Source: Candidatus Omnitrophota bacterium
Lineage (GTDB): Bacteria > Omnitrophota > Gorgyraeia > Gygaellales > Profunditerraquicolaceae
Assembly: GCA_025453445.1 (NCBI GenBank)
Contig: JALOQJ010000004.1
Span: 1-51,479, forward strand
Length of the DNA: 51,479 nt
Direction of reading: 5' to 3'
The notes beneath the pieces were generated by a model. That model did not search any database. It was not told where the DNA came from and was given only the letters and a program-made list of their open reading frames with translations. This document shows positions 36,406 to 46,128 of the stretch, piece after piece (the first letter of the stretch is position 1; the number at the start of each line of letters is the position of its first letter). A program made the position numbers and the translations under genes.

Positions 36406-36479
36406 GCGCCCATAGCTCAATTGGATAGAGCGTCAGTCTTCGGAACTGAATGTTGCAGGTTCGATTCCTGCTGGGCGCA
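36406..36479 (+). tRNA. tRNA-Arg (anticodon TCG)
   Basis: The acceptor is GCGCCCA/TGGGCGC, the D arm GCTC..GAGC, the anticodon stem TCAGT/ACTGA with loop CTTCGGA, and the T arm GCAGG-TTCGATT-CCTGC. No CCA is encoded. Confidence 0.85.
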
Positions 36480-36530
36480 CTACACTATAAGTGTGAGCCC
36501 GCCCTGAGCGGAGTCGAAGGGCTGGGCGCA
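36480..36530 (+). repeat. GC-rich element copy 1 (CCTGAGC-GGA-GTCGAAGGG) plus a 10-nt duplicate of the tRNA-Arg 3' end
   Basis: The core lies at 36503-36521. GCTGGGCGCA occurs at 36470-36479 (tRNA end) and again at 36521-36530. Confidence 0.7.
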
Positions 36531-36550
36531 TAAAAGGAGAGCATTAGTTT

Positions 36551-36919
36551 ATGATGTATGAAGGAAATGATTTGCGCAAGCATGAACGTATTGCCGGGCA
36601 GTTTGTTATACTATACCGTATCCCCGAAGAGAATTATCGTGCTGATATCTGTCAGACAAAAGATATAAGTTTAGGAGGACTCAATTTTACTGCTAGTAGG
36701 CAATTCGATGAGGGCGCGCATATTGTTTTGGAGATACGCCTGTTCTCTGAGCAGAAAGGCGTAATCATCAAAGGAAAAGTAAAGAAATCCCGGGAAATTG
36801 CCAAAGGCCTTATTTATGATACGCGGCTTGAGTTTTTAAATCTTGACGATATGCAAAAAGAAGCTATTGGCCAGGTAGAAAAAATATTATTGGGGAATAA
36901 ACAAAAAAATAACCCCTGA
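36551..36919 (+). CDS. PilZ-domain c-di-GMP receptor
   Basis: RxxxR (RKHER) and DxSxxG (DISLGG) motifs at canonical spacing. 122 aa. Confidence 0.75.
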   Translation: MMYEGNDLRKHERIAGQFVILYRIPEENYRADICQTKDISLGGLNFTASRQFDEGAHIVLEIRLFSEQKGVIIKGKVKKSREIAKGLIYDTRLEFLNLDDMQKEAIGQVEKILLGNKQKNNP

Positions 36920-36923
36920 ATAG

Positions 36924-37397
36924 TTATCTTTTTATCACTGCTTTCCATTCTTCCAGAAGGTATCCCGGGACTACCCAGTTAATTTTTCCGAAATTTTTTG
37001 AATCAAGGGTTATAGTGGCGCTGCGGGAGGTTAAAATGTAGCGTGCCGTCGGGCCAGAGGCGTCGAAAGAAGCTTCAGTTGTAATAATTTCTTTTTTGTC
37101 ATCAGAGAATGTGCTGCCTAAGAAGGCAATCGGGAAGACCGAAGCAGTAAATTTTATGCTTCCGCTGACAAATATTACTTTTTCCCGTTGTTTGAGGATA
37201 AAGCTGAGCGTGTAATTAGAGTCCGGGCGGTTTTTGGAAAATAGAACCTGGTCAAAATATCCGGCTCCTGCGAAAGAACTGACAACTCTGGTTTTCTGGG
37301 CGTTTTGATCGTAGAATTCCGAAATTCCACAGGTACCTAACGCGGGGGTGGATATAAAAATTATAGCCGCTGTCAGAGAGGCATAAAATCTTTGCAT
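36924..37397 (-). CDS. Hypothetical secreted protein or lipoprotein
   Basis: N-terminal hydrophobic signal with ...PALGTC. I recognise no family. It is the only minus-strand gene in the 13-50 kb block. Confidence 0.4.
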   Translation of the reverse strand: MQRFYASLTAAIIFISTPALGTCGISEFYDQNAQKTRVVSSFAGAGYFDQVLFSKNRPDSNYTLSFILKQREKVIFVSGSIKFTASVFPIAFLGSTFSDDKKEIITTEASFDASGPTARYILTSRSATITLDSKNFGKINWVVPGYLLEEWKAVIKR

Positions 37398-37456
37398 TTT
37401 TCCTCCTTTCTCTAATTATACCACTAAAAATTGGAATAAAGTAATTCTTTAAATAT

Positions 37457-37485
37457 TTGACTAAGGCGGTTATTTAATATAAAAT
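37457..37485 (+). promoter_or_regulatory. Sigma70-type promoter upstream of tRNA-Lys / archease / rtcB
   Basis: TTGACT (37457-37462), a 17-nt spacer, then TAAAAT (37480-37485). Confidence 0.5.
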
Positions 37486-37581
37486 ATTACATTCTACAGG
37501 GAAATTTAGCCCCCTCGCAGTAGTTGCGTTAGCCGTAACTGCCCGGGGTCAATTTTCAGGTAAGTAATAGCAGGAAAATTG

Positions 37582-37648
37582 AGGGCCATTAGCTCAACCC
37601 TTCGACTTTGCTCAGGATTTCGCTAATGGCTTAGATAGGCAATAGATA
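37582..37648 (-). repeat. GC-rich element copy 2 (reverse orientation) plus a 16-nt duplicate of the tRNA-Lys 5' end
   Basis: AGGGCCATTAGCTCAA occurs at 37582-37597 and at 37649-37664 (the real tRNA). The core cccttcgactttgctcagg at 37598-37616 is the reverse complement of CCTGAGC-AAA-GTCGAAGGG. GCCATTAGC (37585-37593) pairs with GCTAATGGC (37622-37630) and encloses the core. Confidence 0.7.
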
Positions 37649-37649
37649 A

Positions 37650-37725
37650 GGGCCATTAGCTCAATTGGCAGAGCAGGACACTCTTAATGTCAAGGTCGTA
37701 GGTTCGACTCCTACATGGCCCACCA
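37650..37725 (+). tRNA. tRNA-Lys (anticodon CTT)
   Basis: The acceptor is GGGCCAT/ATGGCCC, the D arm GCTC..GAGC, the anticodon loop CTCTTAA, and the T arm GTAGG-TTCGACT-CCTAC. CCA is encoded. Confidence 0.85.
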
Positions 37726-37741
37726 TAATTCAAGGTAAAGT

Positions 37742-38158
37742 TTGAAAAATTACGAGATTTTAGAGCATACCGCTGATATCGGCATCCGCGTAAAGGCAAA
37801 AGATTTGGGCGGTTTATTCAAGGCCGCGGCTCAAGCGATATTTGCACTTACCGCAGAGAAACAGCCCTCCAGAGACAGAGAAAAACATAAAGTAATCATT
37901 AACCAAAAAGCAGCCAGCCTTGAAGAATTATTTATTAATTGGCTGAATGAAGTGCTTTCTTTATCGGCAGTAGAAGCAATGGTCTTTGAAGATTTTCAGA
38001 TTAGTAAAATTGATGAGCATAATATTGAAGCTGTGGCTTTGGGCAGCGATATAAAAAATTATAAAATCAATACCGAAATAAAAGCCGCAACATACCACGC
38101 CTTAAAAATTGAAAAAAACAATTCTGGTTGGGTTGCTGAAGTAATCTTTGACGTCTAA
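37742..38158 (+). CDS. Archease (RtcB activator)
   Basis: YEILEHTADIGIRVKA at the N-terminus and KAATYHAL.I near the C-terminus. TTG start. It overlaps rtcB. Confidence 0.85.
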   Translation: MKNYEILEHTADIGIRVKAKDLGGLFKAAAQAIFALTAEKQPSRDREKHKVIINQKAASLEELFINWLNEVLSLSAVEAMVFEDFQISKIDEHNIEAVALGSDIKNYKINTEIKAATYHALKIEKNNSGWVAEVIFDV

Positions 38159-39614
38159 TATGAGTGAAAGTCAAATTAAGCTTGAAAAAATCGATGATTT
38201 TCGCTGGCGTATACCCAGGTCTTACAAGCCGGGGATGCGTGTGCCGGGTTTAATTTACGCCGACGAGAAATTACTTAAGGATATTTATCAGGATAAAGCG
38301 TTAGAGCAGGTGGCTAACGTCGCATTCCTGCCGGGGATTGTAAGTTATTCTCTTGCCATGCCGGATATTCACTGGGGGTACGGTTTTCCTATCGGAGGGG
38401 TTGCGGCAACAGATATTGAAGAAGGGGGAGTAATTTCTCCCGGTGGGGTGGGATTCGACATTAATTGCGGCGTGCGTTTGATGAGAACCAATCTTGAATA
38501 CACTGATGTAAAAGATAAGATCAAAGATTTAGTGTATAGGTTATTTTCTGATGTTCCGGCGGGGGTCGGTTCCAAAGGCGATATCCGGTTAAGCGCTAAA
38601 GAAGAAAAAGAAATTTTAATCAAAGGTTCGCAATGGGCAGTAGCAAATGGCTACGGTATAGAAGATGATTTAGATTGTACTGAAGAACGTGGCGCAATTA
38701 CCGGAGCTGATCCTGATGCTGTTTCTGAGCGAGCATACCAGAGAGGCAAGGCGCAATCCGGGACACTCGGATCAGGGAATCATTTTCTTGAGATACAGGT
38801 AATTGATCAGCTTTACGACGCCGAATTGTCTGATGCTTTTGGTTTGAATTTAGGCCAGATTATGGTGATGATCCATTCCGGTTCGCGGGGCTTAGGCTAT
38901 CAAATCTGCGATGATTATACAAGAAACATGGTGCATTGCTTGCAAAAATATAGTATCACTGTGCCTGATCAACAGTTGGCTTGCGCTCCGGTGAATTCTC
39001 CCGAAGGAAAAAGTTATTTAGGGGCGATGAAATGCGCGGCAAATTATGCCTGGGCAAACCGGCAGTGTTTGATGCACCTTACGCGCCTGAGTTTTGAGAA
39101 AGCTCTTGGGTTGCCTTGGGAAAAATTAGGTATGCAGTTAATTTATGACGTGGCGCATAATATCGCAAAAATAGAGAAGTATGAAATTGAAGGAATTACA
39201 AAGAACCTTTGTGTGCATAGAAAAGGTGCCACCCGCGCTTTTCCTCCGGGCCATCCGGCGCTTCCTGAAAAATACAAATTGACAGGACAGCCGGTAATTA
39301 TTCCGGGGGATATGGCTAGGAATTCTTATTTACTGGTTGGAACAGAAAAAGCTCAGGAAACTTTTTATTCGGCTTGCCACGGAGCCGGACGGGTGAAATC
39401 GCGCACTGCCGCCACCAAGTCAATTAATCTAAATGTTTTATTGAAGGAATTGGAATCTAAGGGTATAATTGTTAAGGCCTCTGGTCGCGGGACAATAGTG
39501 GAAGAAGCGCCTCAGGCTTATAAAAACGTCAACGATGTAGTAGATGTTGTGCATAACGCGGGAATTTCCAAGCGTGTCTGTAGGATGAGGCCGCTTGGCG
39601 TCATTAAGGGTTGA
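38148..39614 (+). CDS. rtcB: RNA 3'-phosphate/2',3'-cyclic phosphate ligase RtcB
   Basis: MPDIHWGYGFPIGGVAA, GGVGFDINCG, GSGNHFLEIQ and HGAGR motifs. The ATG at 38160 is an alternative start. Confidence 0.95.
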   Translation: MTSNMSESQIKLEKIDDFRWRIPRSYKPGMRVPGLIYADEKLLKDIYQDKALEQVANVAFLPGIVSYSLAMPDIHWGYGFPIGGVAATDIEEGGVISPGGVGFDINCGVRLMRTNLEYTDVKDKIKDLVYRLFSDVPAGVGSKGDIRLSAKEEKEILIKGSQWAVANGYGIEDDLDCTEERGAITGADPDAVSERAYQRGKAQSGTLGSGNHFLEIQVIDQLYDAELSDAFGLNLGQIMVMIHSGSRGLGYQICDDYTRNMVHCLQKYSITVPDQQLACAPVNSPEGKSYLGAMKCAANYAWANRQCLMHLTRLSFEKALGLPWEKLGMQLIYDVAHNIAKIEKYEIEGITKNLCVHRKGATRAFPPGHPALPEKYKLTGQPVIIPGDMARNSYLLVGTEKAQETFYSACHGAGRVKSRTAATKSINLNVLLKELESKGIIVKASGRGTIVEEAPQAYKNVNDVVDVVHNAGISKRVCRMRPLGVIKG

Positions 39615-39665
39615 GGGAGCCCTGAGCTTGTCGAAGGGCGACCTCTTGGCGTTATAAAAGGATAA
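39615..39665 (+). repeat. GC-rich element copy 3 (CCTGAGC-TT-GTCGAAGGG) plus a second, synonymous copy of the last 8 codons of rtcB
   Basis: The core lies at 39621-39638. The sequence at 39642-39665 (cct ctt ggc gtt ata aaa gga taa) encodes PLGVIKG*, as does the real end at 39591-39614 (ccg ctt ggc gtc att aag ggt tga). The two copies are 51 nt apart and in frame. Confidence 0.75.
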
Positions 39666-39668
39666 AAA

Positions 39669-40937
39669 ATGCTAGACTTAAAATTCATCAGGGAAAATCA
39701 GGATTTGCTAAAAAAATCTTTAAGCGATCGCGGCTTAACCTTGGATTTGGATAATCTCTTTAAATCCGATGAGAAGCGGCGTAAAGTTTTAAGTGAACTT
39801 GAGGCCTTAAGGCAAGAGAAGAATTTGGCCAATGACGAGATTACTGCTTTGTTAAAAGCTAAAGTTGATGCTAAGCCGAAAATCGCTTCAATGAAAGAAA
39901 TCTCTCTTAAAATCGGCAAGTTAGAAGTTGATCTAAAAGAGATAGAGGTTGAATTAGATAAAGTTACATTAAATATTCCCAATATTCCACATGATTCAAT
40001 ACCGCGGGGAGATGCAACTTGTAATAAAATCGTGCGCACCTGGGGCGAGCCGCCGAAATTAAATTTTAAACCCAAGACGCATATTGAATTAGCGCAAAAA
40101 TTAGATATTATTGATTTAGGCAGGGCAACAAAAATTACCGGCACTAATTTTATCCTTTATAAAGGCTTAGGGGCAAAATTAGAACGCGCTTTGATTAATT
40201 TTATGCTGGACCTGCATACTAAAAAGCACGGCTACACCGAGATTTTCCCGCCATTTTTAGTCAACCGCGCCTCAATGACCGGCACAGGCCAGCTTCCGAA
40301 ATTAGAAGAAGATATGTACCGTTTAAAAGATGACGATCTATTCTTAATCCCTACGGCAGAAGTCCCTGTAACCAATATTTTCCGCGATGAAACTCTTGAT
40401 GAGGATAAGCTGCCGATTTATTACGTTGCCTATTCCGCTTGTTTCAGGAGAGAGGCAGGATCTTATGGAAAAGATACTAAGGGCCTTACCCGAGTCCATC
40501 AATTTGATAAAGTGGAAATGGTAAAGTTTGTCAGGCCTGAAACTTCTTATGATGAGTTGGAAAAGTTAGTGGGTAATGCTGAAGCAGTGCTGCAGGCGCT
40601 GGGCCTGCCTTATCGCGTGGTCATGCTGGCTACTAAGGATCTAAGTTTTTCAGCAAGCAAATGTTATGACTTGGAAGCTTATGCTGTTGGAGTGGATAAG
40701 TGGCTGGAGGTTTCCAGTTGTAGTAATTTTGAGAATTTTCAAGCACGCCGGGCGAATATCAAATTCAGAAGAAAAGAAACAAAGAAAACCGAATTTTTAC
40801 ATACCCTCAATGGCTCAGGTGTAGCTATGGCGCGCACAGTAATTGCCATATTAGAAAATTACCAACAGGAGGATGGTTCAATACTGATACCGGAAGTATT
40901 GCGGCCATATTTGGATGGCAGAGAAAGAATTCCCTAA
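39669..40937 (+). CDS. serS: Seryl-tRNA synthetase
   Basis: [14 protein letters not shown] coiled-coil N-terminus and class II motifs ([25 protein letters not shown]). Confidence 0.95.
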
Positions 40938-45660: not shown

Positions 45661-45687
45661 TAAAATTTTCCGACAAGGAAAATTTTA
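45661..45687 (+). terminator. Perfect 11-bp AT-rich hairpin immediately 3' of tRNA-Ser(CGA)
   Basis: TAAAATTTTCC-gacaa-GGAAAATTTTA. It could be a terminator or a processing signal. There is no separate U-tail. Confidence 0.4.
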
Positions 45688-45874
45688 CGGATACTGAGCG
45701 AACGTAGCGCGGCGACAAGCCGCGCAGTGAGCGAAGTATTTTGCCGCCTGACAAAGAAAAAAATCACGGATTCTGAACGAGCGCAGTGCCGCGGCAAGCG
45801 GCACAGCGAGTGAAGAATCTTAACCTGAGGCCGCGCAGTGAGCGAAGTATCTTGCCTCCTGACAATGAAAAAAG
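45687..45874 (+). repeat. Composite direct repeats with conserved GC hairpins between tRNA-Ser(CGA) and the GIY-YIG gene
   Basis: ACGGATNCTGARCGARCG occurs at 45687 and 45766. The hairpins are GCGCGGC-gacaa-GCCGCGC (45707-45725) and GTGCCGC-ggcaa-GCGGCAC (45786-45804). The 39-nt tail CAGTGAGCGAAGTAT.TTGCC.CCTGACAA.GAAAAAA occurs at 45726 and 45835 with 3 mismatches. Confidence 0.8.
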
Positions 45875-46128
45875 GCATTTACAGTAATCCTTGGTGCGTT
45901 TATATTGCTGAGTGTAAGGATAAGACTTTATATACAGGCGCAGCCTTAGATGTAGAAAAGCGCATACAAGATCATAACACTACTAATAAATGTCGTTACA
46001 CAAGGTTCCGTAAGCCGTTAAAACTTATGTACCGGGAAGTTTGCGGTAACTATCATTTAGCTCGAAAACGCGAGGAAGAGATTAAGAGATTTAGCAAGGG
46101 TAAGAAGTTGGAGTTGATAAGAAGTTGA
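45865..46128 (+). CDS. GIY-YIG nuclease-family protein (small, UPF0213/YhbQ-like)
   Basis: WCVYIAECKDKTLYTGAALDVEKRIQDHN......YTR...P..L.Y.E......A.KRE..IK. I chose the ATG at 45865. The track's upstream GTG (45838) lies inside the repeat. Confidence 0.75.
   Translation: MKKGIYSNPWCVYIAECKDKTLYTGAALDVEKRIQDHNTTNKCRYTRFRKPLKLMYREVCGNYHLARKREEEIKRFSKGKKLELIRS

Follow-up and report, generated by a model that had tools for sequence, protein, structure and literature searches.

Silently diverged rtcB gene ends on either side of a small hairpin at the rtcB-serS boundary of an Omnitrophota genome: a probable recombination joint

The DNA considered here is a stretch of 51,479 nt (positions 1-51,479 of contig JALOQJ010000004.1, assembly GCA_025453445.1; hereafter the window) from a metagenome-assembled genome (MAG) of a Candidatus Omnitrophota bacterium, which is 1.29 Mb in size and is labelled G000. 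It contains rtcB, the gene for an RNA 3'-phosphate/5'-OH ligase, downstream of tRNA-Lys and archease, and at the boundary between rtcB and serS the last codons of rtcB are found twice, separated by a GC-rich hairpin. All coordinates are positions within the window, and labels beginning with G, L, X and C denote the genomes, loci, sequencing runs and contigs that were compared. The features at this boundary are as follows.

38160..39614, plus strand: rtcB coding sequence (from the open reading frame (ORF) list and RtcB homologues of 70-90% identity with PF01139)
39588..39614, plus strand: copy 1, the working rtcB end, agg ccg ctt ggc gtc att aag ggt TGA (RPLGVIKG*; from the sequence and the ORF list)
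39594..39644, plus strand: 51-nt segment missing from a 96%-identical soil-metagenome contig of run X5 (39593 joined to 39645, with an 8-nt register ambiguity)
39613..39645, plus strand: hairpin element (from RNA and DNA folds and the family census)
39639..39665, plus strand: copy 2, the displaced rtcB end, cga cct ctt ggc gtt ata aaa gga TAA (from the sequence)
39669..40937, plus strand: serS (from the ORF list and Pfam families on an identical contig)

When the letters were rechecked, the duplicated end was found to be exactly as a first-pass annotation, made from the sequence alone, had described it: copy 1 (39591-39614) and copy 2 (39642-39665) are offset by 51 nt, both read PLGVIKG*, and their 6 differences are all silent. 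The likeness extends one codon further upstream, where AGG (39588-90) stands against CGA (39639-41), both encoding Arg, so that the repeat measures 27 nt and has 8 silent differences. The hairpin that was proposed around the spacer core, GAGG-GA-GCCCT / AGGGC-GA-CCTC, was also recovered as the predicted minimum-energy fold, both as RNA and as DNA, with an outer stem GAGG/CCTC, a tandem G.A step and an inner stem GCCCT/AGGGC. The 5' arm of the hairpin takes in part of the rtcB TGA stop, and the 3' arm extends into the first letters of copy 2. The whole insert consists of 27 nt plus 24-27 nt of gene end, and there is no ORF inside it. The last 9 nt of copy 2 contain the serS ribosome-binding site AAAGGA (39657-39662), and its stop codon is located 3 nt ahead of the serS ATG; a tight rtcB-serS junction of this type, '...aaa gga TAA a(a)ATG', is common to most single-copy relatives. 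Copy 2 preserves the serS translation start, and the duplication leaves both the RtcB C-terminus and the serS ribosome-binding site intact. No terminator-like site was found near the rtcB hairpin. A promoter-like sequence, TTGAAG-17-TATAAT (10/12 matches), is located at 39441-39469 within the 3' part of rtcB, 200 nt before serS.

The silent-only pattern is not expected by chance. When 6 random substitutions were placed on the real gene end in a simulation, all of them were silent in approximately 1e-4 of the trials, and with 8 random substitutions in 27 nt this was the case in 0 of 100,000 trials. A genome-wide census of G000 showed that rtcB is the sole ORF whose last 7 residues and stop recur within 220 nt downstream. 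It had also been considered from the outset that an assembly artefact might have collapsed two strains; in favor of this, G000 is a MAG, and the Logan unitigs of run X1 are broken at two places (39482-39511 and 39591-39620). However, an independent JGI contig (21.6 kb) is identical to the window across 4455 nt, the structure included, a single 366-nt unitig from a second run (X2) covers copy 1, the hairpin and copy 2, and the same architecture is present in at least 16 genomes from different studies. Chance resemblance or the artificial joining of two strains is therefore hardly credible. The contigs of X1 and X2 contained the array form only and no excision variant, although rare variants get dropped from contigs.

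The duplication is not an isolated case. When a degenerate codon pattern for P-x-G-V-I-K-G-stop was used to search 234 genomes of the order, the rtcB end was found in 179 of them, and at least 16 of these 179, belonging to many genera and two families, have tandem rtcB ends in 2-4 copies that are 50-141 nt apart, each tandem pair being separated by a GC-rich hairpin and almost all differences between the duplicates again being silent. In other taxa, this layout was seen in only 1 of 78 rtcB loci. The pooled arrays hold 83 silent and 7 non-silent codon changes against a null expectation of 63 non-silent, a contrast that is inflated, as the copies were retrieved via a codon-shaped pattern; the 7 non-silent changes are L/V, I/V and I/L exchanges, variants that working orthologues also use. 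Four genomes (G136, G127, G078, and G056) resemble the window in having 6-7 silent differences each. At the other extreme, G125 has four near-identical copies in a 54-nt unit and G116 has two identical copies flanking a perfect 19-nt hairpin, and these are fresh duplications. Others alternate between two spellings, as beta-alpha-beta in G148, as A-B-A in G114 and G095, and as A-B-A-B in G058. In many arrays, the outer arms of the hairpin are GGGAG, directly after the stop, and CGACC, which represents the Arg-Pro codons of rtcB; in G116 the letters GGGAG recur just before the serS ATG. A related element found elsewhere has the form CGACC-NNN-GGGAGT-core and is flanked by direct repeats of 5-15 nt.

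The first-pass annotation had suggested that both copies have been, or still are, used as the coding end. The first half of this suggestion is borne out by the silent-only differences in at least 16 genomes and by Val and Ile variants of displaced copies, which orthologues use as well, whereas the second half is contradicted by several observations. The offsets within the arrays are mostly not multiples of 3 (50, 52, 53, 56, 83, and 88 nt, and others), and in the window no start codon is located between the rtcB stop and copy 2. Furthermore, some copies have decayed: in G018, which has the same hairpin at the same site, the copy behind it contains an indel and has Leu in place of Pro, the third copy in G078 is ruined, and only a 10-nt remnant is left in G030. 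As judged from these out-of-frame spacings, the lack of a start codon and the decayed copies, the extra rtcB-end copies are not translated. Several special mechanisms were tried and rejected. Read-through translation is ruled out by the out-of-frame offsets, a diversity-generating retroelement by differences that are not adenine-specific, and an alternative genetic code by the use of TGA at the end of 24% of the long ORFs in this genome and at the end of rtcB in several relatives. Bypassing as in T4 gene 60 requires take-off and landing codons that match, a stop behind the take-off codon, a hairpin, and an ORF that continues past the landing site. The GGT-TGA, the hairpin and the 51-nt gap of the window are reminiscent of this arrangement, but the landing Gly codon in the window is GGA and is followed immediately by a stop, and in other arrays the Gly codons do not match and the gaps vary in length.

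In three informative comparisons with close relatives, it is the downstream copy that resembles the working end of the relative. A soil-metagenome contig of 255 nt from run X5, which is 96% identical to the window, is without exactly 51 nt (39594-39644) and has its gene end spelled as in copy 2; the register of the missing segment is ambiguous by 8 nt, as cttggcgt is present in both copies. In this comparison 5 of the 6 differences fall within the final 13 nt of copy 1, the divergence of the flanks is 2-4%, and no difference is listed over 39645-39668. Similarly, when the array of G181 is compared with the working end of its congener G220, the displaced copy has 2 differences in 24 nt and the working copy 7 in 24, and when G107 is compared with its congener G129, the displaced copy shares a rare Val and has 3 differences in 24 nt, with 6 in 24 for the working copy. 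The downstream copy (39639-39665) is thus most likely the native end, as far as these comparisons of spelling indicate. Codon usage lends this no support. The first-pass annotation had called the AT-rich codons of the downstream copy typical of the genome, but this copy scores a codon log-likelihood of -12.0 against -10.3 for the upstream one, and its CGA is the rarest Arg codon (3%). Recombination at the locus is visible between the congeners G136 and G137, both of which have arrays: they are approximately 20% diverged over the last ~340 nt of rtcB and the array, with 5-10% divergence on either side, and the first 140 nt of serS are nearly identical, the recombination tracts ending at the array. 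A sliding-window comparison of G181 with its congeners for a foreign tract gave no signal against a background of 13%, and an ungapped comparison of the rtcB 3' and serS 5' regions with those of 27 relatives, which are too distant and contain indels, resolved no ancestry difference.

These data also bear on a simpler explanation, in which an ordinary target-site duplication was followed by drift, with the upstream copy changing silently under selection and the downstream copy being held constant because it provides the serS ribosome-binding site and one arm of the hairpin. The constraints that it invokes are real, since the last 9 nt of copy 2 form the serS ribosome-binding site and the stop-start junction, and its first 4 nt are paired in the hairpin. 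In addition, the arrays with identical copies prove that duplication happens. However, 6 of approximately 8 silent sites have changed, which amounts to saturation, and the unconstrained part of copy 2 would be expected to have gained non-silent changes over the same period, yet its first and second codon positions show no difference. Moreover, a relative that is only 2-4% diverged already differs at 5 of the last 13 nt of copy 1. Arrays in which the last copy is far from the serS ribosome-binding site (G148 and G078) are also silent-only, and a flanking direct repeat of at least 8 nt is present in only 6 of the 38 family copies inspected, so that a target-site duplication is not a regular feature of the element. 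We therefore regard duplication followed by drift as quite unlikely.

The spacer at rtcB is a member of a family of pan-bacterial hairpins that resemble REP-type palindromes. The 17-nt family core of the rtcB copy, CCTGAGCTTGTCGAAGG, is located at 39621-39637, and the core pattern of the family, CCTGAGC-N(2-3)-GTCGAAGG, is GC-rich, pan-bacterial, and represented by approximately 8 good copies in G000. The copies at rtcB have a 2-nt loop, and G000 has no other copy with a loop of this length. The core was present in 43 of 101 genomes of the taxonomic family, in which a reversed control pattern was almost absent, and the exact 17-mer of the rtcB copy was found in more than 120 metagenome contigs of 31-73% GC, usually as part of a longer hairpin whose outer arms vary, often in pairs arranged head to head, and sometimes in frame within genes, as at L056. 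There (G078:C29, ~21566), a 42-nt head-to-head hairpin pair lies in frame (ASTTLSINPEQSRR) within a 4Fe-4S ferredoxin-type gene. At the start of contig C27 of G030 (G030:C27:12-125), the core occurs in tandem as five units with a 24-nt period. The element at the rtcB site of G018 is the same as in the window and has a compensating C:G to T:A change, and the G000 hairpin with its CGACC is the same as that of G148, a different genus, across 24 nt. Within genera the element is patchy, being present in G018 and absent from G147. Nearest-neighbour folding of 14 array hairpins gave approximately 5 that clearly beat their shuffles, with an energy model that handles tandem G.A pairs poorly.

Palindromes of this general type have been described as CGTC-tagged REPs, dRS3/NTS and RPE-4/6 (PMC3733652) and as the Ssn-related motifs (SRMs) of GIY-YIG single-stranded DNA nucleases (PMC11893778), and the present family is like them in consisting of short GC-rich hairpins that occur in many phyla, frequently just after stop codons or in frame within genes, often head-to-head and with no transposase within. 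As in CGTC-tagged REPs, the rtcB-type family is a small dispersed palindrome, often in head-to-head dimers, downstream of ORFs. For the tag and stem of such REPs (an unpaired CGTC or TGTC, a stem of 8-9 bp starting with AT, and a loop of 4-5 nt), many metagenome copies read tGTCAT-core-ATGAC, while in the rtcB copy TGAGGGAG stands on the 5' side and the internal region, of 11 nt, contains tandem G.A pairs. A relation to the Ssn nucleases was not borne out, as the SRM string HGTCWYN(0-2)YYVSBRHN(0-5)WNVSBRGN(0-2)RNCYNB (PMC11893778) has 2 matches in the genome, neither of which overlaps any of 8 hairpin copies, and the three small GIY-YIG genes of G000 (two on C22 and one at 45892-46098 of the window) are without an adjoining core copy. 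Among 150 hairpin-bearing loci, a GIY-YIG homologue was found in 2, and it was adjacent in one. How CGTC-type REPs are mobilised was left open by the authors who described them (PMC3733652). A classical transposon or miniature inverted-repeat transposable element does not fit, since a target-site duplication of fixed length and initially identical sequence is not found at every copy: the flanking direct repeats of at least 8 nt (6 of 38 family copies and 0 of 38 controls) are between 8 and 33 nt long. Duplication of this kind is accordingly no obligatory mark of a transposon. A duplication of flanking gene ends is mentioned in neither PMC3733652 nor PMC11893778 ('duplicat', 0 hits in each), and a literature search with the core sequence gave no match.

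Another explanation for the silent-only differences is that the target was duplicated in place when the hairpin inserted and that both copies have since been under selection, either because the unit is removed from the RNA, with religation possibly by RtcB, or because the DNA is frequently deleted and re-expanded. This would account for silent-only differences in arrays of low divergence as well (G062, G137, and G125), and for G058, which has identical A copies, and B copies that are alike except for the stop codon, despite differing spacers. Removal of the unit at equivalent positions stays in frame at any spacing, the hot spot lies at an RNA-ligase gene, and an allele without the 51 nt exists. 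In contrast, some copies have decayed, as in G018 and G078, and the same hairpin duplicates tRNA ends and 5' leaders, for which there is no splicing logic. Furthermore, Rfam 15 gave only tRNAs in the window at the gathering threshold and no match to a ribozyme or structured RNA at 14 array loci at E values up to 1. The region was found in no RNA sequencing run. Differences in a working copy that derive from the junction are necessarily silent in any case, and flipping at the DNA level offers no selection that would keep the unused copy. Selection in place thus appears unlikely, and a bolder variant, in which the repeat unit is cut from the rtcB-serS transcript and religated by RtcB itself, very unlikely.

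The explanation that we favor, with a probability of roughly 55%, is that two diverged alleles meet at the rtcB-serS boundary in a recombination joint marked by the hairpin, and that the native gene end has been displaced. The structure and its recurrence are observed, as are the silent-only pattern, the lack of translation, a downstream copy that looks native, an allele without the 51 nt and recombination tracts that end at the array; we infer from them how the joint forms. The upstream copy and the hairpin would be the most likely incoming part, and since this part carries a complete C-terminus and a stop codon, RtcB would stay intact. The downstream copy would be the native end, which keeps the ancestral tight junction, with its last codons doubling as the serS ribosome-binding site. 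Each copy would have gained its differences while being the working end in a separate lineage, and this would be the reason why the differences are silent. Only those joints that spare the expression of both rtcB and serS would survive, and displaced copies would then decay or be lost by slippage between the repeats. The joint could have formed by either of two routes. A foreign gene end could have been imported together with the hairpin as a cassette, perhaps following a nuclease break, as for the ends of fungal mitochondrial genes that travel with mobile endonuclease genes (mORFs). Alternatively, a local hairpin-associated duplication could have been followed by homologous recombination with relatives that overwrote one side. 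Both routes fit the data, which do not separate them. Among the three mechanisms that the first-pass annotation had offered, an element with its own gene end and recombination between haplotypes fit best, as the downstream copy is the end of a close relative in three pairs (G000/X5, G181/G220, and G107/G129) and a recombination tract is seen in G136/G137. The third, reversible excision, is possible in view of the contig without the 51 nt, which is indistinguishable from a site that was never occupied.

Several observations weigh against a recombination joint of this kind, in addition to the bias in the pooled count of silent changes. Relatives of approximately 95% identity (runs X4 and X7) share the gtc att spelling of copy 1, and this copy may thus be the native one in the rtcB lineage. 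The polarity is reversed in genus g19, where the single end of genome G147 is the allele found in the upstream copy of G018. Over the 50 nt ahead of copy 1, the window and the X5 contig differ at one position only, so that an imported tract would have to be very short or its donor very close, and no donor was identified. The X5 contig could be a secondary deletion product of slippage rather than an empty site. The A-B-A and A-B-A-B arrays (G148, G114, G095, and G058) need more than one event. Finally, all of the data are MAGs and contigs, and none are from reads or isolates.

A gene end that is supplied by an incoming element, with the old end left behind, has precedents. In fungal mitochondrial mORFs (atp6 of Allomyces macrogynus; atp6, atp9, cox2, and nad3 of Glomus), an inserted, diverged 3' end is in use, and the native end, which is close to that of a relative, is displaced downstream; the differences are largely silent and were read as horizontal transfer with reshuffling of 3' ends (PMC3630166). 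The window is similar in that its upstream copy is divergent and its downstream copy native-like, as in G181/G220 and G107/G129, with G018/G147 as the exception. However, the mORF insert is an endonuclease ORF of approximately 1 kb, of the LAGLIDADG or GIY-YIG type, whereas the window has a 27-nt hairpin without an ORF in a bacterial host, and any nuclease would therefore act in trans. The duplicated ends also differ in length, from tens to hundreds of nt in mORFs and 8-9 codons in the window. In E. coli, prophage e14 (and phage 21) gives icd an alternative 3' end with mainly silent changes, the old end (icdC) is kept beyond the element, and loss of e14 re-fuses icd to it (PMC13626634, citing Hill et al. 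1989). Unlike this 15-kb prophage with its integrase and att sites, the window has only a hairpin between the copies, with no recombinase, att core or cargo, and integrase-mediated integration of the e14/icd type was rejected, as neither an integrated element nor a recombinase gene lies between the copies. The tRNA attachment sites of integrative elements are similar in that incoming DNA restores the gene end and a displaced partial copy remains, here for tRNA-Arg and tRNA-Lys, but at these sites only ~30-50 nt, the hairpin included, lie between the copies, with no integrated element. Both the hairpin family and the idea of a foreign end that displaces the native one were already known, while their combination at this tiny scale, with recurrent arrays at the rtcB-serS boundary of Omnitrophota, is not described in the literature covered.

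Three of the ~8 core copies of G000 lie within 3.2 kb of each other (window 36503-39637), namely at 36503-36520, at 37599-37616 in reverse orientation, and at 39621-37, and the first two mark sister insertions at tRNA genes.

36470..36530, plus strand: sister insertion, core 36503-36520 after tRNA-Arg(TCG) (10-nt tRNA 3' end exactly repeated after the core)
37582..37664, minus strand: sister insertion, reversed core 37599-37616, between a displaced 16-nt 5' end of tRNA-Lys and the real tRNA-Lys (from the sequence)

Duplications occur where the loss of an end would be harmful, that is, at tRNA ends, at the rtcB end that overlaps the serS ribosome-binding site, and at 5' leaders. Two inverted core copies bracket the tRNA-Lys-archease-rtcB module, and the displaced gene ends are located outside both. 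The first 14-16 nt of tRNA-Lys are repeated upstream, with a small hairpin between, in four genomes (the window; L012/G032; L019/G018; L324:400-520) and with different element types, the gene body being on the 5' side of the element in all cases seen. The 23-nt spacer at tRNA-Arg(TCG) holds a small inverted repeat of its own (acact/agtgt). At three further copies in G000 (C47:1940-2020, C56:630-710, and C33:22090-22160), which are located in the 5' leaders of reverse-strand genes, a second hairpin precedes the core, with a conserved loop (GCCTCTGGCG) and stems that show compensating changes, and behind the core a part of the leader appears a second time. A palindromic element of another kind, ~75 nt long (atatcccgcttcgtaaacgc...gcgggat), fills the rtcB-serS spacer in several relatives (L324:2454-2527; L005; L209; run X4), so that small elements of several kinds gather at this junction. 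The hairpins at 45680-45860 of the window, beside the small GIY-YIG gene, belong to a related but distinct word family (CTGAGCGAA...GAGCGAAGTAT) and lack the core of the rtcB type. Finally, rtcB itself contains an in-frame insert of ~500 residues after approximately residue 102 in G012:C35:3300-6284 and G149:C33:78454-81426 (L194 and L197; frames of 996 and 998 aa), which is of the size of an intein.

If the recombination joint is real, a geneless hairpin repeat of ~27 nt would leave the footprint that is otherwise left by a prophage or a homing endonuclease, with a foreign, silently re-spelled gene end being in use and the native one left idle downstream of it. A further-reaching and rather doubtful possibility is that the hairpin with its 8-10 re-spelled codons acts as a self-contained 'mini homing cassette', the smallest known version of a foreign gene end, which would be driven in trans by a structure-specific nuclease, spread between Omnitrophota genera via the conserved tRNA-Lys-archease-rtcB-serS flanks and thereby reshuffle the silent sites of gene ends. 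The arrangement of copy, hairpin and copy would in either case be a concrete substrate for studying how such repeats move and which nuclease is responsible, and annotators should then expect short, intact-looking pseudo-ends after repeats of this kind. A recombination joint would also account for the observation that, among near-identical strains, silent sites vary far more in the final codons of rtcB than in the remainder of the gene, and REP-like hairpins would serve as visible signs, and possibly as agents, of the exchange of alleles at the edges of conserved gene modules of uncultured bacteria.

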